DNA of 64,000 nt from an archaeon (lineage in GTDB: Archaea; Nanobdellota; Nanobdellia; Pacearchaeales; GW2011-AR1): positions 100,387-164,386 of the forward strand of contig JABHLR010000004.1 in the NCBI GenBank assembly GCA_018693315.1, given 5' to 3'. The notes beneath the pieces are model-generated. The model searched no databases. It had not been told where the DNA came from and was given only the letters and a program-made list of their open reading frames with translations. Below, in pieces: positions 37,176-56,517 of this stretch (its first letter is position 1; each line of letters starts with the position of its first letter). The position numbers and the translations under genes were made by a program.

Positions 37176-37730
37176 ATGGACAAACAATCTAAAAAAATCC
37201 TGGGATTATTCGCAAGATATATATCACTCATTCTATTGGGACTAGGAAACCTTTACATTATTTATGCAGTTCTAATACCACTTACAATTAGCACACTAAA
37301 CATAATAATATCATTCTTCACAAAACCACTAATAACAGAAAACATCATTCATGTCGGCGCGATAGGCATAGAAATAATCCCAGCATGTGTAGCAGGATCA
37401 GCATTCTACTTATTGCTAATCTTAATCTTATCAACTGCAGACACCAAGCCAGAAACACGGACAAGAGCGGTGATTACAGCGATTGTAACGCTCTTTATTT
37501 TGAACATCATAAGAATCCTGATATTGATCCCAATGGCGGGCTCAGTGCACTTCGAAACGGCTCACTGGATATTCTGGCACATCATCTCAACTATCTTCGT
37601 TGTCGTTATATGGATTGGCGTCGTTAAAATATACAAAATAAAATCAATCCCAATTTATTCAGACATTAAATACATAAAAACTCTAGTAAAGCCCGTTAAA
37701 AATACCGAACGAAATAAAAAGAACAAGTAG
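37176..37730 (+). CDS. Exosortase/archaeosortase-family protein, miniature (184 aa)
   Basis: Polytopic, with the family's Cys/Arg/His order: IIPACVAGS (C71), LNIIRILIL (N110, R113), FETAHWIFWH (H125/H130/H135). Confidence 0.6.
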   Translation: MDKQSKKILGLFARYISLILLGLGNLYIIYAVLIPLTISTLNIIISFFTKPLITENIIHVGAIGIEIIPACVAGSAFYLLLILILSTADTKPETRTRAVITAIVTLFILNIIRILILIPMAGSVHFETAHWIFWHIISTIFVVVIWIGVVKIYKIKSIPIYSDIKYIKTLVKPVKNTERNKKNK

Positions 37731-42114: not shown

Positions 42115-42471
42115 ATGGCACCAAAAAAGAAGACAAAAACAAGATATGTTGATGTAAATGTAAACAAAGGAAATTTCGTATCAAAGTTAATTGGAGGGAA
42201 GAAAACACACGATTTTTCAGACGTAAAATTACTGAGAAACCTATTAAGCAACGAAAAAGCAAGGATTCTTTACGCCCTGAAATCCAAGAATCCAAAGTCA
42301 ATATACGCTCTAGCAAAACTTTTAGGCAGAGATTTCAAATCAGTGAGAGACGACATAAAAGTCCTAGAAAGATTCGGATTCATCGAGTTTCACTCTGAAA
42401 AAACTGGCAAGAGAGAGGCCTTGAAACCAGTTTTGGTGATAAGCAAACTTCAGGTAATCATAAACATTTAG
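42115..42471 (+). CDS. Winged-helix (ArsR/MarR-like) transcriptional regulator
   Basis: 118 aa. LLSNEKARILYALKSKNPKSIYALAKLLGRDFKSVRDDIKVLERFGFIEF. Confidence 0.6.
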   Translation: MAPKKKTKTRYVDVNVNKGNFVSKLIGGKKTHDFSDVKLLRNLLSNEKARILYALKSKNPKSIYALAKLLGRDFKSVRDDIKVLERFGFIEFHSEKTGKREALKPVLVISKLQVIINI

Positions 42472-42965
42472 GCAAGAACACTACAAACCTTCATTCTAAT
42501 AACTAAGCTATCAGAGCCCGAAACAATGCTCCTTTGTGCTGCACTCACACTACCAGTACAATTCCCCCCAGAAATCCTCAATTTTCCCTCTTCTCCAATA
42601 TCATCCTTCACAAGGAAATCAACCTGATAATAACTCACAGCCGCCTCACTCTCCATCATAGCATCAACAACACTAAGCAAACTCTCATTCAGATACCCAC
42701 ACGCAGACTTCTCCAAATTACTACACTGATCAATCTGATGACAACTCTTAAACAACGCCTCGAAATCATCATAAGCCGGCTCATAAACAATCGCGCACTC
42801 AGTCGTATGTTTCATCAACGCATCCAGCATATTCTCAACCTCAAGGCTCTCAACCGCCTCAGGCGAATCCCTAAGCGACATAATCAGAAAAACCATCAAT
42901 CCGACCACAACAAGCACAACTATCAACACAAATCCAACAATTTCCTGCTGTCCACGCTTATTCAT
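42468..42965 (-). CDS. Class III signal peptide (prepilin-like) protein, 165 aa
   Basis: N-terminus MNKRGQQEIVGFVLIVVLVVVGLMVFLI. Cys-containing globular C-terminal part. Confidence 0.6.
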   Translation of the reverse strand: MNKRGQQEIVGFVLIVVLVVVGLMVFLIMSLRDSPEAVESLEVENMLDALMKHTTECAIVYEPAYDDFEALFKSCHQIDQCSNLEKSACGYLNESLLSVVDAMMESEAAVSYYQVDFLVKDDIGEEGKLRISGGNCTGSVSAAQRSIVSGSDSLVIRMKVCSVLA

Positions 42966-43461
42966 TTATTTTCACCCCCACAACCAACTTCCCGACTTCA
43001 CACCTATCAAAAGCCGAACCCTCTTCACGAACCCTCTTACAAATCGAAACGTAAGTCGAATAAGTTTTCACATTACTCTGCCCACTATCATAAATATCAT
43101 AAAAATTACAACCAAGCCCAGGGCACTTCTTAACCGAATCAAACGCAGGATAAATCTTATACACGCCAACCGACGCCACAGGCCAAAACACATTATAAGC
43201 CCCGCTAAAATTACTAGACATAACCACCAACTTATCTTCATCAACAGTCATCGTCTCACTAGAATCGTAATTCAACTCAGGCATATCAGCGATCACCCTC
43301 AACGACGAAATAGCCTGATCCTTCTGCAATTGCGCCGCAGTCCCACGAACATCTTTAAACTGAATCCCAATAAAAAACAAACCAACCAGAATGAAAAACA
43401 AAAACACAGCCATAATCATAAACGCCATCTGCTGAATCTTCATCTGCCCAATTTTCCTCAT
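42958..43461 (-). CDS. Class III signal peptide (prepilin-like) protein, about 167 aa
   Basis: N-terminus MRKIGQMKIQQMAFMIMAVFLFFILVGLFF. The ATG overlaps the upstream stop as ATGA. The track ORF extends to 43476. Confidence 0.55.
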   Translation of the reverse strand: MRKIGQMKIQQMAFMIMAVFLFFILVGLFFIGIQFKDVRGTAAQLQKDQAISSLRVIADMPELNYDSSETMTVDEDKLVVMSSNFSGAYNVFWPVASVGVYKIYPAFDSVKKCPGLGCNFYDIYDSGQSNVKTYSTYVSICKRVREEGSAFDRCEVGKLVVGVKINE

Positions 43462-44441
43462 CGCCACATTCCGCACAACTCCCTTTTATTTTTTTTACCA
43501 AGATTATCAGAAGTCATCCTCATGCTCATCAAATTATCAGCAGTCGAATTAAACAACATCCCGCTCCACACAATCAAATCCGATTTTATATTCGTGTCAC
43601 ACCCTCGAGAATCCATCAAATCACCCTTAGACGCAAACTCCTCAGCAATCTTACCAGCACGATACATCAACCGCTCAACATTACACTCATAAACAGCCTT
43701 GTCCGAAAAAATCGCACCATACATCAAACTCCCAACATACTTCAAATCACCACCAGAACCCTTGCTCACAACCCCCGCATCAAAAACAGAATCACAATTA
43801 CTCTGACAAGATCCATAAACCATCATATCACAACCATCACCATTCCCGAAACAAACTTTAACGGCATCAGCAACGCTACAGTTTGACAATTCCGACCCCA
43901 ATGGCATACCAGTTGGATAATCAAATTCAATATTAGGAATTCCCAAACCCAAAACTTCATCAACAACTTCCTCTGGCGCATTAATAAAACAATAATCTTC
44001 AGCCGTCAAAAATATCAAATCAGCAACTTCATACGGGAAATCAAACCCCTTCGAAAAAACATAATAATCCTCACCAGAATTCTGCTCCGACGAAAAAATA
44101 TATTTATTATGAATCGACGTCGCACCCCCAGCCAAATTCCATTCCTCGCCAACATTCGATCGAGTCGACACAGAAATATCATTCTTTCCAAATCCACTTC
44201 CCAAACAAATATTATTTATCCGAGTCTCATCATTAAACGAAATCCGTCCAAACGAACTCTCTCCAAAACCAACCTGCAAAGGATCAGTAATTATTGCAAT
44301 ACTTTTCGCAACCTCAGTATCACTCTGAAACCTCGCCGTATCCCCGGCCTGCATCGCCCCATAAATCGCCAAAAACAAAATAGCCCCACCAACAATTATT
44401 GCAAACAACCAAACAAAATTAAACTGACCCAATTTATTCAT
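43458..44441 (-). CDS. Class III signal peptide (prepilin-like) protein, 327 aa
   Basis: N-terminus MNKLGQFNFVWLFAIIVGGAILFLAIYGAMQ. Multiple Cys pairs downstream. Confidence 0.55.
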   Translation of the reverse strand: MNKLGQFNFVWLFAIIVGGAILFLAIYGAMQAGDTARFQSDTEVAKSIAIITDPLQVGFGESSFGRISFNDETRINNICLGSGFGKNDISVSTRSNVGEEWNLAGGATSIHNKYIFSSEQNSGEDYYVFSKGFDFPYEVADLIFLTAEDYCFINAPEEVVDEVLGLGIPNIEFDYPTGMPLGSELSNCSVADAVKVCFGNGDGCDMMVYGSCQSNCDSVFDAGVVSKGSGGDLKYVGSLMYGAIFSDKAVYECNVERLMYRAGKIAEEFASKGDLMDSRGCDTNIKSDLIVWSGMLFNSTADNLMSMRMTSDNLGKKNKRELCGMWR

Positions 44442-44926
44442 GCTACAATTACCAATTTATCATAAAATCCTTTCTTAATAGTAAGTCCAGCCTCGACATT
44501 AACACAATAAGGATTCTCTTCAAAAGTAATTTTCTCAACATCAATATGTTCAATCAACTTCCACTCCATTCCTTCAGCATATTCAGGCGGCACCAAAAAA
44601 GTATTAGCAGCATAAACATCATAATTTCTAATCGCTTCATAGGCAGGCCCAGGGTTAGTTATAGTATCAGACAAATTGGCAATACAAACCTGTTTAACGC
44701 CATCAGGCAAATCAATTTCAAAAACAGCCTCACTAAACTGCCCGCCCATCGACTCATCTACAGCATCCTGAAACTCAGCGTAAAACATTCCAACTCCAGA
44801 ACTCCGACCAATATCAAGAAAATACCCAACCGCGATAAAAGCAATCACCACAAAAACCACTATCAAAAATATCGCAAAAATAATACCAAACGGCATACTC
44901 ATCGTCTGTTGACCTCTTTTTTTCAT
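44438..44926 (-). CDS. Class III signal peptide (prepilin-like) protein, 162 aa
   Basis: N-terminus MKKRGQQTMSMPFGIIFAIFLIVVFVVIAFIAV. Confidence 0.6.
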   Translation of the reverse strand: MKKRGQQTMSMPFGIIFAIFLIVVFVVIAFIAVGYFLDIGRSSGVGMFYAEFQDAVDESMGGQFSEAVFEIDLPDGVKQVCIANLSDTITNPGPAYEAIRNYDVYAANTFLVPPEYAEGMEWKLIEHIDVEKITFEENPYCVNVEAGLTIKKGFYDKLVIVA

Positions 44927-44940
44927 AATCAGCTAAAGAT

Positions 44941-44956
44941 AAAGATGTTTATAAAA
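44941..44956 (-). promoter_or_regulatory. Internal promoter-like element ttttataaacatcttt, 14 nt upstream of the ATG at 44926
   Basis: The 16-mer is identical to 47106-47121 and sits at the same distance from a start codon. Confidence 0.45.
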
Positions 44957-44975
44957 CTTCCAATTTTAAAGACTA

Positions 44976-46361
44976 TCAAAACTTTATTATGGCACCATAG
45001 GTTGTTTCAATCTTTTTGTGATAACCGTCACGACTCTCTGTTAACTCATCTGTGGATCCGAAGCCAACACTAGCGCCACCAACTTTTTTTTCAATCCACA
45101 TCCTGCTAGCAGTGCCCCCAACACGATCAGGGACGGTATAAGCCTCAATAGCATCCTTTATACTAACTTTAAATTCCTTAGGAGGACCGACTTGAGAAAA
45201 AGTATGCGAATGAGCGGGTAATCCATTCCCAAGCAAATTCACGCGGCCAACTTCAAGGTTTTGACCCCCTGCTCCCCTAATAAGATCCTCCGACTCGAGA
45301 TCCAGCCATGATTTTTTATCCACAGGATCATAAGTAAATTTATAGGTACTATCCCCACTCTCGATCACGCTAATGGAATTCATATCTCTCTCAGCCCCAC
45401 TCACAGAAACACTTTCTCCAAAAGTAAAACTATCCTCACCCACTACATAATCTTGTCCAGGAAGCAGAACCCTAGTATCTTCACCCAGTAAAGAATATTG
45501 TCCCGAAACCTCTCCTGGAATAACCTTCCCATCAAAATCAAGGAAATTATCCAACTCCCCCCTCCCTCGAAGTACACTCCCAAACACTTCATCTTCAGCA
45601 ATTTCGATTCCTTCCCCCGTTGGATCAATATCAGAAACTCCTTCCACTCCTTTCTTGGTCCACTTGACACTATCCTCACCAGGGAGAACTTTCAATACCC
45701 CATTTTCATATTTAACCTGAGTACCCTTTTCTATATCAAGAGTTTCCTCTCCAATTTTAAAAGAAGTAGCCTCGCTCGCGGTTAAATCAGCCTGGACAAT
45801 ACTCCCTTTAGAATCCAATTCTACGGAAGATCCACTTTGAATACTTTCAAATTTATTGCCCTTAATGTCTAGGCTACCATCCTTATCAAAAGTCACTTTT
45901 GAACTAGAGCTACCCTTAACTTTTTCAAGAGTTACACCATTCCCAGAAATATCTTCAGCTTTCAAATCCCCTCCAATAAGGTCCCCGAATTCTTGACTTT
46001 CATCCCCAAATTGAATAGTTCCTTCCTCAAAGCCACCCTTTTCTTCAAATTGCATATTTGAAGTAATCTTGGCCCCCTTTTGCATATATCCATCTACTTT
46101 ACTATAGGTGTTTAGCACTTGGGCAAGTTCTGGAGAAGTATCAGCCAGCGCCTTCATCGCCTCCCCTTTTCCAAATTCAACAATACAAGACGTAGGATTC
46201 GTAGCGCACATCGCCTTACTAACAATCCCCGCAAGTTCTGGAGACGCCATTTGCATTCCCTGCGTCCCAAAAGACATAAGGGGATTAGCACTAACAACCC
46301 CAATTAACAAAATCAACAAAATCCCTATCGATTCAAACTTAAACCAAGGTCTCATTCCCAC
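44976..46361 (-). CDS. Secreted G/E/D/S-rich protein, 461 aa (large partner of module 3)
   Basis: Signal-like N-terminus (FESIGILLILLIGVVSANP), GTG start. No family recognised. Only 2 Cys, unlike the giant proteins. Confidence 0.55.
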   Translation of the reverse strand: MGMRPWFKFESIGILLILLIGVVSANPLMSFGTQGMQMASPELAGIVSKAMCATNPTSCIVEFGKGEAMKALADTSPELAQVLNTYSKVDGYMQKGAKITSNMQFEEKGGFEEGTIQFGDESQEFGDLIGGDLKAEDISGNGVTLEKVKGSSSSKVTFDKDGSLDIKGNKFESIQSGSSVELDSKGSIVQADLTASEATSFKIGEETLDIEKGTQVKYENGVLKVLPGEDSVKWTKKGVEGVSDIDPTGEGIEIAEDEVFGSVLRGRGELDNFLDFDGKVIPGEVSGQYSLLGEDTRVLLPGQDYVVGEDSFTFGESVSVSGAERDMNSISVIESGDSTYKFTYDPVDKKSWLDLESEDLIRGAGGQNLEVGRVNLLGNGLPAHSHTFSQVGPPKEFKVSIKDAIEAYTVPDRVGGTASRMWIEKKVGGASVGFGSTDELTESRDGYHKKIETTYGAIIKF

Positions 46362-47091
46362 CCCCTACTTGTATCGCAAATGAATAAACATATCCGATTT
46401 CTTCATTAAGCACAGATGCCCCATCTTCCAGTAAAAAGAAAAGAGAATCACCCTCTTGGCTCATCGTAACATTTAGATCCTGCTCCAATAGGTAAAAAAA
46501 ATCCACCGTCCCCCCTAACTCCTCTCTCATCCAAACAATATTATCAGCAGCCTTATAATATTTGCTAAAATTAACCGGGACAACATAGTCAATATTGTCC
46601 TCAAAAAGAATAGAATTATCCCCCTTTGTTTTTGTCAAAGAATAGTCCACAGCAAAAGAGACAGTTTCGCTAAGACTAATAGTTGGAGAAAATTTCAAGA
46701 CTTTTATTTCATAACCTTGATCACTGAAATATGAAAAATTATCAATACAAGCGTTTACATTATCCAAAAAGAAAACCTCAAAATCACTTCTAATTTCTTC
46801 TAGGGATTCGAGCTGCTTTTTATTCTCATAAAACAAATAACTAATGGCGTTGTCTCCAAGATTTATAGATTTTTTTTGTTCAATATCACCACCCCTTAGA
46901 CCCAATATCGCCAAAGATTTCAGCCCCTCTACTTCAATGCAATCTTCTAGAAGTTTCTCAGGATTTTCTAAATTGCCATCTTTTTCAGAAAGTTCACGAT
47001 TACTAGAAAATAACGTAAAAAACGCAACGACAATAACAACAATAATTATAGCAATAATAATAAAAACCGTAACTTGCCCACCTTTTTTCAT
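46339..47091 (-). CDS. Class III signal peptide (prepilin-like) protein C, 250 aa
   Basis: N-terminus MKKGGQVTVFIIIAIIIVVIVVAFF. A divergent relative of the 249-aa and 269-aa proteins upstream. Confidence 0.6.
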   Translation of the reverse strand: MKKGGQVTVFIIIAIIIVVIVVAFFTLFSSNRELSEKDGNLENPEKLLEDCIEVEGLKSLAILGLRGGDIEQKKSINLGDNAISYLFYENKKQLESLEEIRSDFEVFFLDNVNACIDNFSYFSDQGYEIKVLKFSPTISLSETVSFAVDYSLTKTKGDNSILFEDNIDYVVPVNFSKYYKAADNIVWMREELGGTVDFFYLLEQDLNVTMSQEGDSLFFLLEDGASVLNEEIGYVYSFAIQVGGGNETLV

Positions 47092-47105
47092 AGCTCATAA
47101 ACAAC

Positions 47106-47121
47106 AAAGATGTTTATAAAA
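47106..47121 (-). promoter_or_regulatory. Internal promoter-like element ttttataaacatcttt, 14 nt upstream of the ATG at 47091
   Basis: Identical 16-mer and spacing to 44941-44956. Confidence 0.45.
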
Positions 47122-50100
47122 TTATAGAAAGTTTCTCGAAGGCCTAACAATAACAGAACAATCAGCATCCTCATTCCTAAATTCATCCCTACACTTAATG
47201 TAGAAAGTCTCTTCATTATTCCACTCAGCAACATGAACACTCGTATTCGCATAAGGCATTTGTGTTCCCTCATCAAAGCTAAAATCACAATCGTCATATG
47301 TGTAAGCACACTCGCTATCACGGACAGTCACAAGCTTCAGCATATTACTCTCCTCATAAATCCTAGCAACAACCGGCGCATTCTGGTCAATATCCAACTC
47401 AAAATCAGCAGTATCTACAACCAAATTCCCACCCTCATCAACACACTTCACATAATACTCCTTATCACCCTCAGTCAAATCCAATCTCTGCGTATGAATC
47501 CCATCCTCAGTATTAGTATCAAAGAAAGCAATATAATCATTTTCATCACCAGTCTCTGAGTACGAACAAATAGCCCTACCATCATTACACCCAAACAAAG
47601 TCTCAACATACAACTCAACAGGCATCGGACTAACAGCCCCGAAAATCGTCTCATTAGGTCTCAAGTTCTTCATCTTCAAACCAGTACTTCCCCTCAGGCT
47701 AAATGCATAACTCTGCGCCATCTCATTCCGCTCGTTCTCAGCATTTCCAGCATGATCCTTACATCTAATATAGAACTTCGTATCATCCCTCGAAATCCCA
47801 GTCAATTCAGTAGCACAAGTAAACAACTGCTCAGCATTAGCCTGATACAGCTCATTATTACAGCTCATCAATCCCTGCATATTATCAAAGTCCTGATCCT
47901 GCGGACTCCACCTACATTCGGCCGGCTCATTCGTATAAAACTTGACGTTAGCAGTATCCTGATCCTCAGCAACACAACCACCATTCAAGACCGAAGTAGC
48001 CTCAACCTTAGGAGCAGTGCTATCAGGAGTAGGGTCAACACAGAACTTCACAGCATACTCAGCCTCGTTCTCATTCCCATTCTTGTCCTTACACCTCAAG
48101 AAGAAAGTCATATCCTTCCCATTCTCAAGAACCAAAGACGAATTCTGCAAATCCGCAGCGCTAGGCAAAGAGAACGTTTCGGAATGATTATAGGAGTATA
48201 AATTACTACCACCAACATAAGCTCTCATGTCATCAAAAGTCACAGTATGATTAAAGTCAATCTTACACTGCCCAGGCTCATCCAAAGCAATACCGAATTC
48301 CAAAGGAGTAAACGCCTTCAAGCAACCGTCGCTCGCATTCATATTCGTAATCGTAAACCCAGGCCCAGGCGGAGAATTCTTAACACCAGTATAATCATGA
48401 CCACGACTCAAGTCTTCGTAATTCGGTTTAATCATCGGCGGCACAACATCGTTCGGCCTAACATTCACACAAATCTCATTATCAGTCCCAACATTCTCAA
48501 GCTCACAATTCTGCCCCAAAGCCTTACATCTATATTCAGAACAAGGAAGCGTATCATCATTACATTCCTCACAAACATCCCCACCACTCGGCGCCTGCCA
48601 TGGCATACAATTAAACTCAACAACTTGCGTCTCCGTAGTCCTATACATCATAACAAAAACAATCGCAGCAACACCAATTCCAATTACAGGAGCATATGCA
48701 GCAACAGAACCAAACGCCTCATATGTGGCAACGGCCTTGTATGCAAATGCACCAGCAGCCAAAGCAGTAGACAAAGCCTGAACATTATTCTCTTCCATTC
48801 CAAGCAAATTCCCAATCAACATACCAGCACCATAAGCAATCGCAGCCCACTGCAAACCACCGATTAGAGCATCAGCAATTCCACCGCCACCAGCACCAAG
48901 CCATCCAGAAAGCGTAGATCCAGGCTCCCCTGCTTGCATCTGAGTCATTCCTTCTGCATCTGGCAATGCATCAAAAGCCTCGGTAAAAGTCTTTCCGTCC
49001 TGAGTTATCTTCGCAAGATAACCACCACTATCAGTCTTACTAAAAGCTACAGTCGCATCCTTAAGAGCAGTATTTCCAAGCTGCCCAGTTACTCCAGAAT
49101 AACTACTCCCCGCTTGAAATGTACCCTTCAGGTCATAAAGTTGATTTCCAGCCCACATGCTAGATTCGCCGCTAGGAGTTCTCGTAAACACAGGCGTCTT
49201 CGACCCAGCAAGATTTGGAGCTACAGTGGGACCACTCGCACTATTTCGTGTAACACCAAAATATTCTTCAGCACCACTTTGCGAAACAGGACCAGCTCCT
49301 TGGTTAGACGCCGCCCTCTGTAAATCAGATGGACCATTACTACCAAAAATACCCTTATCAAACAAGTCTTTCATAGGCGCAACAGCCGTAGCTGCTTGAA
49401 CAACCCCGCCAATAGAACTACCCTTACTCTTTTTAGTATCTTTAGTAGCCTCACCAGTAATCGTCCCAACAACCATCCCAGTCACAGCCGCAACCATTCC
49501 AGTAAATCCACCACTAATAATATTCACAGTATTTGGAGCAAACTTCTTATCTTCTTCATCTACAAGCCACTTGTAACCGTCGTCAGTATAAGTCCCCTTA
49601 TAATTCACATAACCACCACAATCCCCAAGCGAAGCACAAACCCTATTAGCGTCCAGTGCCCACGGCTCTTCCAAACACTCACAACCCTCAACGCAATCAC
49701 TTCCTCCAATTAAACCCTCTTCGAAAACAACAACACACTTTGCATTAGCTTGACCGCAAGTCTGCTGAGCAGTACTCTCTTCCCAGAAATTCAATCCAGG
49801 CGCAAAGTTAGGAACACAAACTCCACTAGGCCTATTAGTAACAGTCTCTTCCTCAACTTCCTCTTCCTCGTCATCCCCACCAAAAATAGCCTGACCAGTT
49901 ACAGGAGAAATGCCACCCTCAAACTCACCACTAGAAGTCGGATTACTAAACCCAGGAGTCCCGCCAGTAGGATTCGAAAACTTATCCCCCTGTTGCTCAG
50001 CGCCACCAATGACCATCCCAGTCACAGCAGGCAACCAAATACAGTCCCTCTTGTCATTATTAGTACAATCGTCCTCATCTTCCTGAGCAACACATTCCTG

Positions 50101-51285
50101 CCACCTATTCACACGACATCCAGAAGTCTGAAAATCACCAGCGTCAGTTTCAACAGAATCCTGATAACAAACCTCATTCCTAAAATCAGCACACGGCTCA
50201 ACCCTCACATCACCGTCAACACAAACTTCTCTATAATATCTCGAACCAACAGTATCCCCACCGTTTCCAGCCCCATCATCATAAACACACCACGACTCGC
50301 CATTAATCCTCGCATCCCCATTCCTATCAACACACTCAGTCCTCTGACAATAATTATCACCAGTCTCAGGCCCACCAAGATAACCCTCAAACTCAGCACA
50401 TCTCGAACCCAAGAAATAATCACAATTCCCACAGCTCATATCCGAACCATCATTAGGATCACAAACTCCATCAGCATCAAGTTTCTTCCCATTATTCCAA
50501 CTCCTAGCCTTATCCTCAGAATAAACATTCTCCCTGTTCCCACAAGAATCAGTCCAGAAAACATCACCCTGATAACAAACCGTATTAGTCTGCTTAGCAC
50601 AAGCAGTATTCAACTCCTCAGCCGAACACAAAAAGTCCTTGTAAAAAGTCCTCTGGCTAGACAAACTAACATTCGTCCCATTAACAGATTCAACCTTATC
50701 GCTAGCCCCACATTCACCACGAGTTGTAAATTGACAGACCCTATCGAAATCCTCCTCATAAACACAAGCACCAGTATCCTGAGCCTGCGCAGTCGCAATA
50801 CAATCAACCTCATTGGTTATCCCAGTCCTATAATCATTAGCAACCCCAAAAAAAGTACTCAACCTTTTACATCGAACCAACGGAACAAACGCAGCCTGAT
50901 CAGCAATAATACAACATCCCAACTGACACTGCGGAACCTGCCCAATTTCCCGATCATCCCAAGTCCCACCCTGAGCATTACAAACTCTCTGCGGCGTATT
51001 CTCCATACAAATCCCTTCCTCAGATTCATAACAAGTCCCAAGCCGACAATACGAAGTCGTCTCACACGAAGTCGGCGCACTCAAAAAACTATCACTACAA
51101 TCAGACTCATCAGCATTAACACACCACGCACCATCCTCAGTCTTCTCACAACAAGTACTCGGTTCACTCAATTCAGATTGCGCAGCAACGCTAGGAGTCA
51201 CATCAGCGACCATAAACGCAAACGCAAACATCGACAAAATCAACAATACAGTTTCAAATCCTGCAATTGCTTTTTTGTTCATCAT
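47122..51285 (-). CDS. Giant Cys-rich surface/membrane protein, 1387 aa (paralogue of 52116..55784)
   Basis: Layout: N-terminal hydrophobic segment (KKAIAGFETVLLILSMFAFAF); Cys-rich region (aa 44-560); Gly/Ala-rich TM segments (about aa 588-881); a Cys knot (CMPWQAPSGGDVCEECNDDTLPCSEYRCKALGQNCEL); four C-terminal repeats ending (F/Y)(F/Y)xxCxDxxGN. Confidence 0.7.
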   Translation of the reverse strand: MMNKKAIAGFETVLLILSMFAFAFMVADVTPSVAAQSELSEPSTCCEKTEDGAWCVNADESDCSDSFLSAPTSCETTSYCRLGTCYESEEGICMENTPQRVCNAQGGTWDDREIGQVPQCQLGCCIIADQAAFVPLVRCKRLSTFFGVANDYRTGITNEVDCIATAQAQDTGACVYEEDFDRVCQFTTRGECGASDKVESVNGTNVSLSSQRTFYKDFLCSAEELNTACAKQTNTVCYQGDVFWTDSCGNRENVYSEDKARSWNNGKKLDADGVCDPNDGSDMSCGNCDYFLGSRCAEFEGYLGGPETGDNYCQRTECVDRNGDARINGESWCVYDDGAGNGGDTVGSRYYREVCVDGDVRVEPCADFRNEVCYQDSVETDAGDFQTSGCRVNRWQECVAQEDEDDCTNNDKRDCIWLPAVTGMVIGGAEQQGDKFSNPTGGTPGFSNPTSSGEFEGGISPVTGQAIFGGDDEEEEVEEETVTNRPSGVCVPNFAPGLNFWEESTAQQTCGQANAKCVVVFEEGLIGGSDCVEGCECLEEPWALDANRVCASLGDCGGYVNYKGTYTDDGYKWLVDEEDKKFAPNTVNIISGGFTGMVAAVTGMVVGTITGEATKDTKKSKGSSIGGVVQAATAVAPMKDLFDKGIFGSNGPSDLQRAASNQGAGPVSQSGAEEYFGVTRNSASGPTVAPNLAGSKTPVFTRTPSGESSMWAGNQLYDLKGTFQAGSSYSGVTGQLGNTALKDATVAFSKTDSGGYLAKITQDGKTFTEAFDALPDAEGMTQMQAGEPGSTLSGWLGAGGGGIADALIGGLQWAAIAYGAGMLIGNLLGMEENNVQALSTALAAGAFAYKAVATYEAFGSVAAYAPVIGIGVAAIVFVMMYRTTETQVVEFNCMPWQAPSGGDVCEECNDDTLPCSEYRCKALGQNCELENVGTDNEICVNVRPNDVVPPMIKPNYEDLSRGHDYTGVKNSPPGPGFTITNMNASDGCLKAFTPLEFGIALDEPGQCKIDFNHTVTFDDMRAYVGGSNLYSYNHSETFSLPSAADLQNSSLVLENGKDMTFFLRCKDKNGNENEAEYAVKFCVDPTPDSTAPKVEATSVLNGGCVAEDQDTANVKFYTNEPAECRWSPQDQDFDNMQGLMSCNNELYQANAEQLFTCATELTGISRDDTKFYIRCKDHAGNAENERNEMAQSYAFSLRGSTGLKMKNLRPNETIFGAVSPMPVELYVETLFGCNDGRAICSYSETGDENDYIAFFDTNTEDGIHTQRLDLTEGDKEYYVKCVDEGGNLVVDTADFELDIDQNAPVVARIYEESNMLKLVTVRDSECAYTYDDCDFSFDEGTQMPYANTSVHVAEWNNEETFYIKCRDEFRNEDADCSVIVRPSRNFL

Positions 51286-52091
51286 GCGTCATACCCCGAA
51301 GGCCAAGCCAAACTTCGGCTAGCAAACTGAAATTTATTTCCAAAATCTTTGTGTTCTAAAATATAAATCGTCGTCCCATCGCTCCGCTTAATCTTATCAA
51401 TAATATAATCAGGATAAATCACCATCATAGCGCCAGTATCAGAGTCACCATATTTCGTCTCAAATTGCAAAATCGAAGTCGCAATCATAACCATATCATA
51501 AACAGGCGAATTCACATTCACATTAAACCTCGTAAACCTCGTAGCTCCAACCGTCGTCGGTGCATCAATCAAAACCCTAACAGCCCCAGGCTCAATCACA
51601 ACATCATATGTAACAGCCCCAGAAGTAACATCATAACCACGCGATTTCAAATCATTAACCGAAGCATCATAACAAGCATCAACATCACCCCGAATCAAAA
51701 GCTCCATCTGCTCATCAAAAGTAGTCTTCAAAAACGGAACCTGAACCGAACACGTCTCATAGAAAGCATTCGTGTAACAAAGATAAGTCATCTCCTCGCC
51801 GTTGTAAGCATAAGTAAATTCAGGATTAATAAAGCCGGCCCTTTTCTCCAGCTCTCCAATCGCATCTTCAACAGAATCTTCAACACAATTCTCAAAAGCC
51901 AAGCCCCTTCCGGCAGCCGAAAAATAAGTCGGTTGAAGCCACAGGAAAAAAATCAAAACAGCAGAAACTATGACTATCGCAATAATAATAAATATCGTCA
52001 CTTGCCCCTTTTTTCGAGGGCTAGCGCCCCGAGAAAAACATGAAGGGTTGTTCATCAATCCTACTTTTTTATTCATGTTTATTTCAACCAT
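51282..52091 (-). CDS. Class III signal peptide (prepilin-like) protein B, 269 aa or less
   Basis: ...RKKGQVTIFIIIAIVIVSAVLIFFLW. Homologous to protein A (shared Y-x-G-x-E-x-x-YLCY, RG(F/Y)DV, IY-x-L). The start is uncertain (52091, 52076 or 52055). Its stop overlaps the giant gene's start (ATGATGA). Confidence 0.6.
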   Translation of the reverse strand: MVEINMNKKVGLMNNPSCFSRGASPRKKGQVTIFIIIAIVIVSAVLIFFLWLQPTYFSAAGRGLAFENCVEDSVEDAIGELEKRAGFINPEFTYAYNGEEMTYLCYTNAFYETCSVQVPFLKTTFDEQMELLIRGDVDACYDASVNDLKSRGYDVTSGAVTYDVVIEPGAVRVLIDAPTTVGATRFTRFNVNVNSPVYDMVMIATSILQFETKYGDSDTGAMMVIYPDYIIDKIKRSDGTTIYILEHKDFGNKFQFASRSLAWPSGYDA

Positions 52092-52115
52092 CTTTTATTT
52101 ATAAATTCTATTATA

Positions 52116-55100
52116 TTAGAGAGCCCTAGCTTCTATGGAACATCCCGAAGGTACATTCCCAAATTCATCCTCACATTTAACATAATAAGTCTCACCACGA
52201 GTAACACCAAAGCTATGCTCCTTCCCGGTCCCAGCAGATTGCCCAGTAGTCCAATTAAATCTACAATGAGCCGTGTCATATTTACACTCAGCATTCTCAG
52301 TCGTAATAATATTAAAGCTCCCACCAGACTGCCAAATCCTAGCAATCTGCGGCGTCGAACTATCTTTTATAATTCTAAACTCAGTAGTCCCACGAGCAGT
52401 ATCCCCAGTCTCATCCTTACACTCGACATAAATCTTATGATCACCAACACGCCAATTCATAGGCCAACGATGCGGCCTCTCAGCTCCAGTCTGAAATAAA
52501 GTATCAGCCAAATTATCAAAGCTATCAAACGAATAAGAACAATGATGCCACTCTCCACCACCAGAAGTCATAATCTGAAAATCAACAGTAGCAAAATTAG
52601 TATTAACCTCAAAATCCTGACTCGGCTCAATCCAATCAACCTCAAGCTTCTTCTCCGGCTTCCTCAACCTATAAACAAAACTCTCCGCGTTCGCATTCCT
52701 CTCATCACCACGCCCAACAGCGTCGAGAAATCCCTGATCCTCACATCTCACAAAGAAATCACTAGTCACACCAGAAACAGGCATCGTCGCAACACACTTC
52801 GTAGAAGACCCATACAACCCAGCAATATTAGGGCTACAATCAAAATCATTCTCCATCAAAGAATAATCCATATCAGTCGTGTCCCACTTACAATCAACCG
52901 CATCCTCATTCACATAAACCTCAACATCCTGCGAAGTCGCATCGAAACTAACCAACCCATCATTCCCGGGAACAAATCTCTTAACAAGCGGACCAGTCAC
53001 ATCAGGACCCTGCACAACACACAAATCAATTGTATAAAACCCAGGGGTCGTATGCCCCTTCTGATCATGGCACCGAGTATAAATCTTCAAATCTCCAGTC
53101 CAATTCAAACCACGACTCTCACCATTACTCGGATCCGGCAAAGCAAACGAAACCGTGTGATTATAATCATAATAATCATCCTTGTAAATCTCAGTTTCAG
53201 AAGTCTCCCCAAACTCAGTCATCGCCAAATCAAAAGTACATATCGCCGGCTCATCAGTATTAATTCCAAACAGCAATTCAGTATGAGCAGCAATACACCC
53301 ACCATTACTACCATCGACCGAAGTAATACTAACCCCCGAAGCCGAATCCCCGCTATAAACTTCATTATCAGAAATCACACCAAACTGCGGACTAATAACC
53401 GGCGGCGTCGCATCATTAGGATTCCCGTCAATACACAATTCATTATCAGTCCCCTTATTCAACAACTCACACGCGGCCCCCAAACTCTTACAACGATATT
53501 CCGAACACGGCTTCAGCGGATCCCCATTACACAACTCACAATCAGCAGCGCCAACAGGAGGCTGCCACGGACTACACGTAAACACAACCTCAACAGGATC
53601 GCAATCACCCATCCCAAAAAACAAAGCCGCAATCATAAGCACAATACCAATAATTAACACAGGCCAGAAAAGCCCACCTAAAGAAGCAACCAAGGTAGTA
53701 TATTCACCAATTAATGCAACGCTAACCATAGAAGCACCAACACTCATCAACGCCGTCCCAACAGGACTAAGCCCTAAAGCCTTCGCAAGCAAAATCCCAA
53801 CAACAGCTCCAATCGCACCCGCTATCGCCGACGCTGCCATTCCACCATATCCAGCAAGCGCCCCGCCAGTACCAGTAATAGCACCCATACCAGGTGCCCC
53901 AAGGGTCGCAGGAGCAAACCATCCAAGTTTAAATCCAGCAAGCAAAATCCCAGCCATCCCAACATTCAAACCCAACATAATATTAGAGTGATCCGCAGGA
54001 CCCTCGGCATCTTCAGGAGCAGGACCCGGCCCACCAAATAATCCAGCAGCCGCCAAATAATCATCATAATCCTCAACCTCAGCAAACTGCCCAGGAACAG
54101 CCGTCGCCATAGCCACCAAAGTAGAAACCGAATCAGCACTCAGCATCGGCGAATTCACAACCTTATAATTCTCAGTAAACTTCCCAGCAATATTAACCTC
54201 GCCGCCACAATCCCCAAGCTTCCGACACATATCATTCATCCCAATCGCAAAACCAGATTCCTCACAAGCGCAATTCGTATCACAAACACAACTCCCAGTC
54301 ATCGTCTGCTTGTAAATCACAGTACAAGTCTGATCCGCCATCGCACAAGTCGATTTCGCAGTAGCCTGATATCTTTTATCCGTAAAACTAGAACCACCAG
54401 GATACCGCGGCGTGCAAATATCAAACTTAAATTTATCCGCAATATCAACATGCTCAATCCTACAATTCAAAGTCTCCTCGCATACCTCCTTTCCACCCTC
54501 CTCGTTGTTCAAAGCGATACACTCTCTCCAATTGTTCGCGACACAAGCAGCATTCCGGAAATCCACCTCACCAGCTCCAATATCCATCGTATTTGACTGA
54601 GTACAAATCTGATTCCGATAATCAGCACACGGCTCAACATTCACATCACCCTGATTACAAACATACTTCCAATGCCTCGACCCAACAACATCATCACCGT
54701 CGCCAATCTTCCCATCATAAACACACCAAGACTCCCCAGGCTTGTATTTCACACCATCAAACATACACGAAGTATCCCTACAAAAAGAATCCCCAGAATC
54801 TACAGTAAAACTATTCTCAGAAGCCGACGCGCAAATTCCACCAGCAAACCGATCACAATTCCCGCAACTCGCACTATTCGCACTCCCACTAGAATCCCCA
54901 CAAAGCCCATCGGTCTTCACATTCTCCCAGTAAGAATCATCATCAACCTTCGACGAATCATAAATATTAGCAGCATTCCCACACGAGTCAAGAAAATAAA
55001 CCCCATCTTTACCGTCGACACAAGTCGTCTGCTCAGTCTTAACGCAAGAAGTATTTAGACCATCAGCAGTACAAAGCACATCAGGATGAAACTCGCCACT

Positions 55101-55784
55101 CAAACTAGCACATTCCTCAGCAGTCCCAAATTTACAACTATTCCCAGCAGTAACACAAGCCCCAGTCACCTGAGTCTCCGCAGCACCAAGACATTCCAAA
55201 ACATTCATATCACTTTTCCACTCAACAATCGCGCCATTCGTCCCACGAACATCACAAGCCCCACGCGTCTCATAATAAGATTCAGTCCCAACAATACAAC
55301 AAGCTTCCTGAGCCGCAGGCATATTACAATTCGGATCCGCAACCCAATCCACATCACAATGAGATTCCTTAACATTCGGAACATAAGTCCCAGCAGCCTC
55401 ATTTATACAACAACCCTTTTTACAAAACGAAGTCGCAGCGCAATCCGCACCGTCGACAAAACCAACTCCATCCTCACAATTTCCCGCAGTCGCCGATCCA
55501 CATATTTCTCCATTCACAGCAACCTCACAGCAACCAATCCCAGTTCCAGCAGCACTAACAACAGGGATCATCGGAGCCCGAAGCCGCGCAATAATTCCAC
55601 CAACAAGTTTCCCAAAAAATCCAGCCCTCTCGTCAGCACCATCTTCATACTGTTTCATACTCGCTCCAAAAGCATCATCAGTCAAAGCAACACCATAACT
55701 AAAAGCGAAAAGCGAAACTAACATCAACGTCAACTCGAAACCCGCAATTATTTTTCTATTATCCATCTTACATTCCCGGCGCAA
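52116..55784 (-). CDS. Giant Cys-rich surface/membrane protein, 1222 aa (paralogue of 47122..51285)
   Basis: Same architecture as its paralogue. Shared motifs: DSCGN, SCGNCDRFAGG, GESWCVYD, VGSRHWKYVC..GDVNVEPCADYRNQIC, LGDCGGEVN, CSPWQPP..CELCNGDPLKPCSEYRCKSLGAACEL. Gly-rich TM block about aa 601-725. An alternative start lies at 55766 (MDNRK). Confidence 0.7.
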   Translation of the reverse strand: MRRECKMDNRKIIAGFELTLMLVSLFAFSYGVALTDDAFGASMKQYEDGADERAGFFGKLVGGIIARLRAPMIPVVSAAGTGIGCCEVAVNGEICGSATAGNCEDGVGFVDGADCAATSFCKKGCCINEAAGTYVPNVKESHCDVDWVADPNCNMPAAQEACCIVGTESYYETRGACDVRGTNGAIVEWKSDMNVLECLGAAETQVTGACVTAGNSCKFGTAEECASLSGEFHPDVLCTADGLNTSCVKTEQTTCVDGKDGVYFLDSCGNAANIYDSSKVDDDSYWENVKTDGLCGDSSGSANSASCGNCDRFAGGICASASENSFTVDSGDSFCRDTSCMFDGVKYKPGESWCVYDGKIGDGDDVVGSRHWKYVCNQGDVNVEPCADYRNQICTQSNTMDIGAGEVDFRNAACVANNWRECIALNNEEGGKEVCEETLNCRIEHVDIADKFKFDICTPRYPGGSSFTDKRYQATAKSTCAMADQTCTVIYKQTMTGSCVCDTNCACEESGFAIGMNDMCRKLGDCGGEVNIAGKFTENYKVVNSPMLSADSVSTLVAMATAVPGQFAEVEDYDDYLAAAGLFGGPGPAPEDAEGPADHSNIMLGLNVGMAGILLAGFKLGWFAPATLGAPGMGAITGTGGALAGYGGMAASAIAGAIGAVVGILLAKALGLSPVGTALMSVGASMVSVALIGEYTTLVASLGGLFWPVLIIGIVLMIAALFFGMGDCDPVEVVFTCSPWQPPVGAADCELCNGDPLKPCSEYRCKSLGAACELLNKGTDNELCIDGNPNDATPPVISPQFGVISDNEVYSGDSASGVSITSVDGSNGGCIAAHTELLFGINTDEPAICTFDLAMTEFGETSETEIYKDDYYDYNHTVSFALPDPSNGESRGLNWTGDLKIYTRCHDQKGHTTPGFYTIDLCVVQGPDVTGPLVKRFVPGNDGLVSFDATSQDVEVYVNEDAVDCKWDTTDMDYSLMENDFDCSPNIAGLYGSSTKCVATMPVSGVTSDFFVRCEDQGFLDAVGRGDERNANAESFVYRLRKPEKKLEVDWIEPSQDFEVNTNFATVDFQIMTSGGGEWHHCSYSFDSFDNLADTLFQTGAERPHRWPMNWRVGDHKIYVECKDETGDTARGTTEFRIIKDSSTPQIARIWQSGGSFNIITTENAECKYDTAHCRFNWTTGQSAGTGKEHSFGVTRGETYYVKCEDEFGNVPSGCSIEARAL

Positions 55785-56517
55785 ACGCGCAACTCCTTAC
55801 AGCAAATCTAAACTCCGCCCCACTTCGACGATCAACTAACCTATATATCTTACTATTCGAATAATCAATCCGCCGAATATCATACTTCGGATACAACAAC
55901 ATATAACCATTATACTCAAAATTACAATACTGCGACTCCGCATTCACAACATCCATCGAAATCTGAACCAACTCATAAATCGGCGTCAAAATCTCAGTAT
56001 CAAAATTCCCAAAACTCTGCGACGCGCCTTCCTTAGAAACATCAATCCTCTTCGACAAACTAATCTGAACCATCTCCGGCAACAAATTAACCGAATACTC
56101 AGTCGGCCCACCACCGACATCAAAACCACGATCCTCAAAATCAATCCTCATGGTGTTAAAACACTCCTGAACCTCATCCTGCGTATCCCGAACAATTTCA
56201 GCCTCGATCTGCATCTCCAACATCGGATGAATATTATAACATCCCTTGTAAAAATCCGCCTGATAACACAAATAATTCCACTCATCCCCATCATACGCAA
56301 TCGCATGCGACGGCACAATCTCCCCACCATTAAACAACATCTTAGCGACGGAAACCTCAACAGCGTCCTTAACACACTTATCAACAAAAGCCTGAGGCCC
56401 CAAATCCGCCGGCGACTCAACATCAAAATCCCCAACAAACATAAACAACAAAATAATCCCAACAACTATCACAATCCCAATAATAATAAAAATCGTCACC
56501 TGACCTTTCTTATTCAT
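55768..56517 (-). CDS. Class III signal peptide (prepilin-like) protein A, 249 aa
   Basis: N-terminus MNKKGQVTIFIIIGIVIVVGIILLFMF. Its start overlaps the RHH stop (ATGA). Confidence 0.6.
   Translation of the reverse strand: MNKKGQVTIFIIIGIVIVVGIILLFMFVGDFDVESPADLGPQAFVDKCVKDAVEVSVAKMLFNGGEIVPSHAIAYDGDEWNYLCYQADFYKGCYNIHPMLEMQIEAEIVRDTQDEVQECFNTMRIDFEDRGFDVGGGPTEYSVNLLPEMVQISLSKRIDVSKEGASQSFGNFDTEILTPIYELVQISMDVVNAESQYCNFEYNGYMLLYPKYDIRRIDYSNSKIYRLVDRRSGAEFRFAVRSCAFAPGM

Follow-up and report, generated by a model that had tools for sequence, protein, structure and literature searches.

Two giant paralogous proteins are encoded close together on the minus strand of the DNA stretch studied here, which comprises 64,000 nucleotides (nt) from an archaeon of the Pacearchaeales (GTDB lineage GW2011-AR1; assembly GCA_018693315.1, contig JABHLR010000004.1, positions 100,387 to 164,386) and is referred to below as the window. 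Sequence comparisons place both proteins in a large, previously undescribed family that is conserved across Pacearchaeota/Woesearchaeota-type DPANN archaea. The A-type giant, gA (window positions 47122–51285), has 1387 amino acids (aa), and the B-type giant, gB (52116–55784), is an open reading frame (ORF) of 1222 aa. Each consists, in order, of a conserved leader, a Cys-rich head of approximately 500 aa, a variable Cys-free stalk, glycine-zipper helices, a seven-Cys knot and four homologous immunoglobulin-like (Ig-like) domains. The reading that we favour, while giving it somewhat less than an even chance, is that the two giants are the paralogous subunits of a membrane-anchored, disulfide-stabilised surface complex, which would include partner proteins with class III signals, is encoded beside a surface-layer (S-layer) gene and would serve contact with another cell or a surface.

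Paralogy and Domain Architecture of the Giant Proteins

For gB, translation probably begins at an ATG at position 55766, adjoining the stop codon of the preceding gene, which would give a protein of 1216 aa. By BLASTP, gA and gB align over gA residues 1–572 (30% identity, E 2e-64) and 821–1381 (31% identity, E 9e-77); both high-scoring segment pairs are collinear, and a variable middle is the sole part that does not align. An earlier reading of the bare sequence (the original prediction) had described the pair as paralogues alike along their whole length, which holds apart from this middle. The seven motifs that it quoted as shared were recovered by regular expression in both proteins, where it had located them; in gA, the VGSR...EPCAD..C block spans nt 50167–50250 and the knot motif nt 48469–48609. 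Cys counts likewise bear out dozens of Cys on each side of a central region. gA has 66 Cys (43 in residues 45–556, none in 557–892 and 23 in 893–1376), and the 1222-aa ORF of gB has 67, of which 44 belong to the head and 21 to the tail, one follows closely on the final helix, and another, at residue 5, precedes the likely start. Cys accounts for approximately 5% of each giant vs. 0–2% of the housekeeping proteins in the window. As judged from the related loci described below, the duplication is ancient and both copies are retained, which suggests that gA and gB act together or split the work.

In gA, the leader occupies residues 1–35 (nt 51181–51285), the head residues 36–575 (49561–51180), the Cys-free stalk residues 576–795 (48901–49560), helices A–C residues 796–880 (48646–48900), the knot residues 881–945 (48451–48645), and the four Ig-like domains residues 946–1387 (47125–48450). 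In gB, the leader (residues 7–38) is followed by an optional amphipathic insert with a Val-Ser-Ala (VSA) motif at its end (residues 39–79), and then by the Cys-rich head (residues 80–560; 54105–55547), supported by AlphaFold2 and conserved Cys columns. A Gly/Ala-rich hydrophobic region (residues 583–728) includes an extra hydrophobic Gly-rich segment (residues 600–624) and glycine-zipper helices A, B and C (residues 650–721; 53622–53837; AlphaFold2, hydropathy and family alignment). The Cys knot (residues 729–791; 53412–53600) is supported by its motif and by column entropy, and the four Ig-like beta-sandwich domains (residues ~795–927, 931–1043, 1045–1142 and 1144–1222; 52119–53402) by AlphaFold2, Foldseek and HHalign.

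An AlphaFold2 model of gB residues 80–1222, built with 62 homologues (pLDDT 78, pTM 0.62), comprises a well-defined head, a disordered Gly/Ala-rich stretch (583–659), three helices, a small Cys knot and four beta-sandwich domains. Foldseek comparison of the whole model with the PDB gave 315 matches at E ≤ 1e-3, with E down to 1.7e-10, and the 50 best listed are all tandem Ig/FN3 arrays, of a kind typical for adhesins and surface layers, aligned to the tail. Because such arrays made up the entire listing, the head was modelled (pLDDT 90.5, pTM 0.70) and searched separately. It gave no match at E ≤ 1e-3 in the PDB, where the best hit was a vWC domain (E 0.18), followed by TNF-receptor-type Cys-rich modules, and none at E ≤ 1e-3 in BFVD. 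The predicted head fold therefore has no detectable relative in either database. Internal repeats within the head were also considered; HHalign gave at most 68% probability between short CC-modules, and none was established.

The four repeats proposed originally correspond to the four modelled beta-sandwich domains past the knot, which are mutually homologous (pairwise HHalign probability 92–97%, E 5e-7 to 3e-11). In the family alignment, every Ig-like domain carries an invariant Cys pair at matching positions. In the gB head, 42 of the 44 Cys fall in columns conserved among B-type proteins. Counted over head and tail, conserved Cys number 42 + 22 in the B-type (even/even) and 41 + 21 in the A-type (odd/odd); this parity by itself suggests a head–tail disulfide in the A-type, which is the type that is often split (see below). 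The knot of gB has the spacing C-x11-C-x2-C-x7-C-x4-C-x6-C-x11-C, plus C728. Column entropy is 1.40 bits in the knot, 1.77 in the head and 2.58 in the linker, so that conservation is highest in the knot and next highest in the head, and lowest in the linker and membrane helices.

Like the spacers of adhesins, the stalk differs among homologues in both length and kind, and may be a coiled coil, Pro/Thr-rich, or interrupted by a Cys-rich insert. One homologue (P0048) has a Cys-rich insert of ~150 aa within an otherwise Cys-free linker, and two others (P0054 and P0058) have coiled-coil linkers of ~200 aa; these linkers would fit an extracellular stalk of variable design. A short motif, P-[IV]-T-G-x-[AV]-[IV]-x-G-G, recurs in the low-complexity insert and linker of gA (residues 417–423, 462–470 and 590–610; ~49456–50037) and in homologues.

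Family Size, Distribution and Conserved Gene Order

Searches of gA and gB, and of the partner and small proteins described below, against Pfam, NCBIfam and PHROGs returned only noise below the cut-offs, and single-sequence searches of PDB sequences with the giants returned no match. With the family profile, the only PDB match was to the hydrophobic region of AopB, a type III secretion translocator (E 0.072); as homology this is not significant, and it is taken to be compositional. No description of the family was found in the searchable literature. A 2026 survey of type IV filament systems in archaea refers to DPANN systems and to a PilY-like adhesin but to nothing resembling the giants (bioRxiv 10.64898/2026.04.22.720090). 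The absence of a recognised family, as claimed originally, is thus upheld across all of these sources.

The family is nonetheless large. At 90% identity, database clusters number 480 for gA and 531 for gB, most of them with proteins of 1150–1450 aa, and nearly all named clusters are "hypothetical protein" from Pacearchaeota, Woesearchaeota, Nanoarchaeota or "archaeon." A head profile, built from a two-sequence alignment of the gA and gB heads and searched over 1.84 billion representatives, retrieved 1,581 clusters at 50% identity (829 at E ≤ 1e-30), including many head-only proteins of 490–690 aa. In the genomes of GTDB species representatives, a relative is encoded by at least 524 stretches of DNA. 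Precomputed Pfam assignments (PF19077, Big_13; PF07495, Y_Y_Y; PF15418, DUF4625) are found in a minority of homologues. By its own terms, the original prediction would have been refuted had the family been both widespread and already annotated; it proved widespread but unannotated, and the finding stands.

Gene order was compared across 82 related loci from species-representative genomes. The recurring order is primase (−), PCNA (+), the partner gene p1, the B-type giant, the partner gene p2, the A-type giant, in some cases a third partner gene (p3), four small pilin-like genes, a winged-helix regulator (−) and the S-layer gene, and it recurs among species representatives whose proteins are at 30–50% identity. 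A partner gene adjoins a giant in 81 of the 82 loci, and 94 of 107 giants have one immediately upstream in the same orientation. Where a locus has room for more than one giant, two or three are present in 59 of 60 cases, with the B-type preceding the A-type in 57. The four small pilin-like genes keep their order in 24–30 related loci, and the regulator gene is syntenic in 20. Of the relatives in GTDB species representatives noted above, 79 loci were kept; nearly all of their record titles name Pacearchaeota, Woesearchaeota or Nanoarchaeota lineages, with two stray labels (Patescibacteria and Methanosarcinales). Operon-bearing contigs with odd labels (L024, JBNMFJ010000010.1; L020, CAZKIP010000035.1; and P0198/P0330), assigned to Patescibacteria, Methanosarcinales and "Methanococcoides sp. 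SA1," probably reflect binning or labelling errors in public records.

The Operon and Its Pilin-Like Products

The giants are part of a ten-gene minus-strand operon of 14 kb (42468–56517), in which most neighbouring genes overlap or abut. It encodes, in order, p1, gB, p2, gA, p3, an exported protein of 461 aa, and small proteins of 162, 327, 172 and 165 aa. p1 (55768–56517; 249 aa), with the leader MNKKG↓QVTIFIIIGIV (arrow, putative processing site), has a stop codon that adjoins the gB start. The stop codon of its paralogue p2 (51282–52091; 269 aa) overlaps the start codon of gA, and p3 (46339–47091; 250 aa) is a divergent third paralogue. p1–p3 are mutually paralogous, and p1 has 344 homologues. 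The small genes (44438–44926, 162 aa; 43458–44441, 327 aa; 42958–43476, 172 aa; 42468–42965, 165 aa) each encode a [KR]G↓Q leader. All seven proteins, p1–p3 and the four small ones, begin with a short basic segment followed by [KR]G↓Q and ~20 hydrophobic residues. We take these leaders to be class III signals that carry Gln at +1, like those of archaeal EppA/PibD substrates. The FlaFind core, [KRDE][GA][ALIFQMVED][ILMVTAS]x3, is present in 105 of 120 members of the partner family. The partners and small proteins of the window match no curated model (Pfam Class_IIIsignal PF04021 and Pilin_N PF07790, or NCBIfam), and homologues of the small proteins give only sub-threshold scores (Pilin_N E 0.036, Class_IIIsignal E 0.59). 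The partner profile likewise has no match among PDB sequences.

The 461-aa protein (44976–46361, minus strand) is Cys-poor and acidic, with a giant-like leader, FKFESIGILLILLIGVVSA. Its gene has no counterpart in the 82 related loci and is specific to the source lineage. Divergent to the cluster is the gene for a winged-helix protein of the HVO_A0114 family (42115–42471, plus strand; Pfam E 8.5e-18), which may regulate either the operon or the S-layer gene. The latter (39559–41688, minus strand; 709 aa) encodes an S-layer-like protein without Cys (Pfam S_layer_C E 1.7e-6) and closes the conserved block. A mobile-element or viral origin of the cluster was rejected, since it lies between PCNA/primase and the S-layer gene in a core chromosomal region that also encodes a ribosomal-protein operon, SecY, FtsZ, SepF and Spt5, and its order recurs in the 82 loci.

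The N-Terminal Leader of the Giants

The leader of the giants has the consensus K-K-[G/A/S]-I-[A/S]-x-[F/L]-[E/Q]-I-x-L-L-I-x-S-x-F-A-F-S-[Y/F], of which the part S-x-F-A-F-S-[YF] is conserved at 63–90%. The original prediction had likened an AG↓FE motif to a prepilin cleavage site; this register is unsupported. A prepilin-type register at KK[G/A]↓, with E/Q five residues further on in 93% of giants, fits better. The residue at −1 of this register is G/A/S in only ~58% of giants, being Ile in gB, and the FlaFind core is matched by only 17 of 237 giants. As a rival reading of the leader, 152 of 234 giants have a V-S-A-like signal peptidase I motif within the 16 residues that precede the first CC. 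This VSA-type site lies 25–30 residues downstream of the KK[G/A] register, and the B-type VSA motif ~45 residues past the hydrophobic helix. The conservation of the leader, together with its presence on both halves of split proteins, argues that it does more than target the giants for export.

Natural Fission of the A-Type Giant

In 24–28 of 52 cases, the A-type giant is encoded as separate head and tail genes, compared with none of 68 for the B-type; gA itself represents the fused form. Split loci include L002 (14653–16377 and 17089–19293), L007, L009, L033 and L082, and small ORFs sometimes lie between the two genes. The split head protein ends soon past the LGDCG..VNY motif in a short charged tail (GGFTGR[IV]...) with no membrane helix. 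The split tail protein has its own copy of the family leader, then a hydrophilic, often Pro/Thr-rich linker of 60–300 aa, helices A-B-C and the knot. A leader followed directly by a hydrophilic linker indicates that the linker is outside the cell, and because each half bears the same leader, head, stalk and tail are probably all exported. The split also shows head and tail to be separable, yet kept together by fusion or adjacency, as expected of functionally tied parts.

Membrane Region and Topology

Kyte–Doolittle hydropathy confirms a central hydrophobic region, in which AlphaFold2 places three helices at pLDDT 53–67; in gB these are residues 650–670, 674–695 and 707–721 (571–591, 595–616 and 628–642 in the numbering of the model, to which 79 is added). 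Of the Gly-rich multi-helix transmembrane bundle proposed originally, the hydrophobic region therefore stands, though it is predicted weakly, and a more fitting description of it is a set of two to four glycine-zipper helices that leave hardly any mass in the cytoplasm. Each giant has 12–13 overlapping small-xxx-small (G/A/S-xxx-G/A/S) motifs in the membrane region, and the family consensus of the zipper helices is FAGAAIGAGIGMxxGxxLA. One homologue carries the NCBI name "glycine zipper family protein"; the Pfam Gly-zipper families give no match at E ≤ 1 in gA or gB. Residues 587–611 of gA, although flagged by hydropathy, are probably not a transmembrane helix, because the homologous segment is the charged C-terminal tail of secreted head proteins.

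The loop between helices A and B is net acidic, and that between B and C is Lys-rich in A-type proteins (+1 to +4). Past the last helix, the B-type flank is acidic (GGDDCDP) and bears a conserved Cys. The head and tail arms are both strongly acidic and alike in composition. Both Cys-rich parts are probably extracytoplasmic, as argued by the leader, the Cys pairs of the Ig-like domains, the acidic B-type flank, the Lys-rich B–C loops, and the split tail genes with their own leader and Pro/Thr-rich linker. The disulfide-bonded ectodomains originally proposed for both ends are to this extent supported as probable, and a model with the tail inside persists as a rival (see below). An even number of spans (two, or four in the B-type) with both arms outside would fit most of these facts. 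Two other tests of topology were set aside. The positive-inside rule taken alone gives conflicting answers for the A-type (YKK) and B-type (DDCDP) flanks and is useful only in combination with the split genes. Ratios of observed to expected N-glycosylation sequons were 0.42 in the head, 0.30 in the middle and 0.98 in the tail, and S-layer and cytoplasmic proteins of the window were both near expectation.

Comparison With Known Systems

The operon invites comparison with bacterial minor-pilin/PilY1 operons of type IV pili (fimU-pilVWXY1E type) and with the GspH-K tip complexes of type II secretion systems. These likewise combine several small prepilin-type genes, one of approximately twice the size (here 327 aa), and the minor-pilin/PilY1 operons also include a non-enzymatic surface protein of >1000 aa. 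Moreover, the E/Q five residues past KK[G/A] in the giants corresponds to the E5 position of bacterial type IV pilins. The comparison is one of analogy only: the giants have no sequence or fold similarity to PilY1 or GspH-K, and no Pfam or NCBIfam match to PilY1/PilC features (Neisseria_PilC, vWA). PilY1 has a beta-propeller and no membrane hairpin, whereas the modelled tail of the giants consists of four beta-sandwich domains. The present operon also differs in having two giants, three partners of ~250 aa and archaeal KG↓Q leaders, with no ATPase or platform gene nearby.

In signal type, the operon can be compared with the archaeal class III signal proteins (EppA/PibD substrates), such as Epd pilins, Haloferax PilA adhesins and the sugar-binding proteins of the Sulfolobus bindosome. 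Like theirs, the seven operon leaders begin with a short basic stretch and place G at −1 and Q at +1 ahead of a ~20-residue hydrophobic helix. However, the operon proteins fall below the Pfam cut-offs for Class_IIIsignal and Pilin_N, and the leader of the giants mostly fails the FlaFind core. Archaea do use class III leaders on large surface proteins that do not form filaments. The tandem beta-sandwich tail resembles fibrillar or Ig-repeat adhesins and arrays (Big_13, HYR-like and FN3 domains; the GhpA grappling hook, the Deinococcus HPI S-layer and titin-like proteins), with the Foldseek scores given above; the match to Deinococcus HPI is a generic Ig-array match. In contrast to those proteins, the giants have only four such domains, placed C-terminally past a membrane helix and Cys knot rather than as a long stalk with a distal head, and gA and gB have no Big_13 or HYR-like sequence match above the Pfam gathering score.

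Repeated small-xxx-small motifs are shared with glycine-zipper segments (Gly-zipper_Omp/YMGG, SlyB-type hairpins and VacA), but in the giants the segment lies mid-way in an exported protein of >1200 aa, in an archaeon with a single membrane. For the head, the best local matches (E 0.18–4, non-significant) are eukaryote-type disulfide-rich modules (vWC, TNF-receptor cysteine-rich domains and uPAR/Ly6), which are likewise beta-hairpin-rich, disulfide-dense units. TM-scores against the query are ~0.07, none reaches E ≤ 1e-3, and the 500-aa head as a whole is without counterpart. S-layer proteins and anchors (S_layer_C; SlaB-like proteins with a coiled-coil stalk and C-terminal transmembrane helix) have no similarity to the giants, and only the 709-aa neighbour matches S_layer_C. 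The SPEARE proteins of Nanohaloarchaeota, proposed to act in DPANN–host interaction, are also very large, exported and lineage-specific, and occur in host-dependent DPANN (PMC6642349). No SPEARE-type protein was among the matches of the giants' searches. SPEARE proteins are larger and have protease and nuclease domains.

The small proteins have the class III leader motif, and the tail has a generic Ig fold; otherwise, no sequence or fold trait that defines the minor-pilin/PilY1 systems or the class III-leader surface proteins is present. The giant family and its head fold are undescribed, as are the operon as a whole and the internal hairpin that would anchor each giant between its two ectodomains. 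By analogy, these likenesses point to a surface assembly akin to type IV filaments and adhesins.

Possible Function and Alternative Explanations

In the reading that we favour, gB and gA would be paralogues of ancient origin that form the core of a cell-surface complex found lineage-wide, each exported by way of its conserved N-terminal leader and anchored in the membrane through a short hairpin of glycine-zipper helices with two or four spans. Two disulfide-stabilised arms would lie outside the cell, namely the novel-fold head on its variable stalk, and the Cys knot with four Ig-like domains. The giants would assemble with the co-translated p1 and p2 (and p3) and the four small proteins; as these bear class III (prepilin-type, KG↓Q) leaders, the product may be a surface structure that is related to type IV filaments and has giant subunits. 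The complex, whose genes lie beside that for the S-layer protein, would probably reach through the S-layer, and its most likely job would be contact with, or adhesion to, another cell (a host) or a surface. An adhesin-like layout is suggested by the order of head, variable stalk and anchor, the coiled-coil or Pro/Thr-rich stalks and the Ig-like arrays. The association with pilin-like proteins is suggested by the tight operon with overlapping stop and start codons, the adjacency of partner and giant genes, the recurring order and the KG↓Q leaders.

Several observations weigh against this reading. The strongest is that head and knot are well conserved group-wide, whereas host-specific adhesins usually diversify; a housekeeping role in the envelope fits such conservation at least as well. 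The pilin-like label derives from leader motifs alone, with Pfam scores below threshold, and the window contains no gene for a type-IV-filament ATPase, a platform protein or a prepilin peptidase. With regard to topology, the YKK flank past the last A-type helix would make the tail cytoplasmic by the positive-inside rule, AlphaFold2 confidence is low across the membrane region, and the sequon statistics are uninformative.

The conservation of head and knot relative to the linker points to an unlikely but credible alternative, in which the giants and pilin-like proteins form a housekeeping scaffold that anchors, spaces or helps to assemble the S-layer or envelope, as a SlaB-like stalk and anchor would, instead of mediating cell contact. 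The near-universal presence of two or more giants where a locus has room for them, the fixed place of the cluster in the core genome beside the S-layer gene, and the agreement of family size with lineage size would all suit such a scaffold. Nevertheless, the S-layer gene is several genes off, with the divergent regulator gene between; the giants resemble no known S-layer anchor by Pfam, PDB sequence or Foldseek comparison; and stalks of variable length with Ig-like arrays are more typical of projecting adhesins. It is also conceivable, although we regard it as unlikely, that Sec exports the giants as ordinary membrane-anchored adhesins and signal peptidase I removes their leader at the VSA site, in which case the pilin-like neighbours would signify conserved order only. 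The frequency of the V-S-A-like motif, the rarity of the FlaFind core and the Ile at −1 in gB are in keeping with this. Yet the degree of conservation seen in the hydrophobic part of the leader would be unusual in a signal peptide that is cleaved off, and an identical leader type is retained on both halves of split proteins. The distance of the B-type VSA motif from the hydrophobic helix, the overlap of partner stop and giant start codons, and the adjacency in all but one of the 82 loci are further difficulties for it.

Two other possibilities concern the membrane region, and both appear improbable. In one, distinctly improbable, an odd number of spans would leave only the head outside, as part of a receptor whose knot (as a zinc-binding module) and Ig-like domains are cytoplasmic and link an outside ligand to an inside scaffold. 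The three hydrophobic helices past the exported linker and the YKK flank of the A-type agree with this arrangement, as do the CxxC and CxxxxC spacings of the knot and sequon frequencies that are at expectation in the tail and depleted in the head. These frequencies are non-discriminating, however, as judged by the cytoplasmic controls and S-layer protein of the window, and the invariant Cys pairs of the Ig-like domains, the acidic B-type flank with its conserved Cys, the Lys-rich B–C loops, and the extracellular or periplasmic Pfam families matched by homologue tails (Big_13, Y_Y_Y, DUF4625) argue against a cytoplasmic tail. The other, very improbable indeed, is that the glycine-zipper helices of several giants oligomerise into a pore or conduit while the ectodomains dock a host, so that metabolites or lipids move between host and symbiont. 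The density of small-xxx-small motifs and the marginal AopB match are compatible with a pore, and DPANN archaea are generally thought to depend on hosts. That match is probably compositional, as noted above, the membrane helices are the least conserved structured part, and there is neither a cytoplasmic domain nor an energy source.

A more elaborate form of the contact hypothesis, which we consider rather unlikely, is a heteromeric machine of A- and B-type giants, in which the A-type head and tail would be disulfide-linked even when made from separate genes. It would be primed or carried by a pseudofilament of the pilin-like proteins, would pass its head through the S-layer and dock onto the host, and might open a glycine-zipper conduit. 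Were this true, the operon would supply the apparatus, long sought, by which these uncultured symbionts contact their hosts.

Among uncultured archaea, the Pacearchaeota and Woesearchaeota rank with the most widespread. They are assumed to live attached to other cells; to our knowledge, machinery for such attachment or for exchange is not known from them. The 14-kb operon, which accounts for a sizeable part of a very small genome and has the same order in 82 loci, is a concrete candidate for an attachment system. The giants are defined targets for antibodies, metaproteomics, assignment in cryo-electron tomography and recombinant binding studies, and their family is a clean lineage marker. The natural split of the A-type offers guidance on domain boundaries and on which parts must interact. 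Even if purely structural, the giants would constitute a large unannotated part of archaeal envelope biology.

Other Features of the Window

A gene approximately 2 kb from the S-layer gene (37176–37730, plus strand) has a weak match to Exosortase_EpsH (E 4.5e-4, below the cut-off) and possibly encodes an archaeosortase-like protein. Beside it, 35441–37135 encodes an exported protein of 564 aa with a C-terminal transmembrane helix and a basic tail. A second Cys-rich exported membrane protein (60982–62823, plus strand; 613 aa, 28 Cys) has no Pfam match and no likeness to the giants. It comprises a signal peptide, three HWG/CWG...RDTA..L.AL repeats, which by eye are terpene-cyclase/thioester-domain-like, a Cys-rich stalk, one transmembrane helix and an Arg/Pro-rich tail. 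Throughout the window, the coding strand is strongly G-rich over C, with a plus-strand GC skew of −0.3 to −0.5 where genes are on the minus strand and ~0 at 30–34 kb, where genes are on the plus strand. This bias gives rise to long spurious antisense ORFs, such as one of 526 aa inside gA (49750–51330, plus strand).

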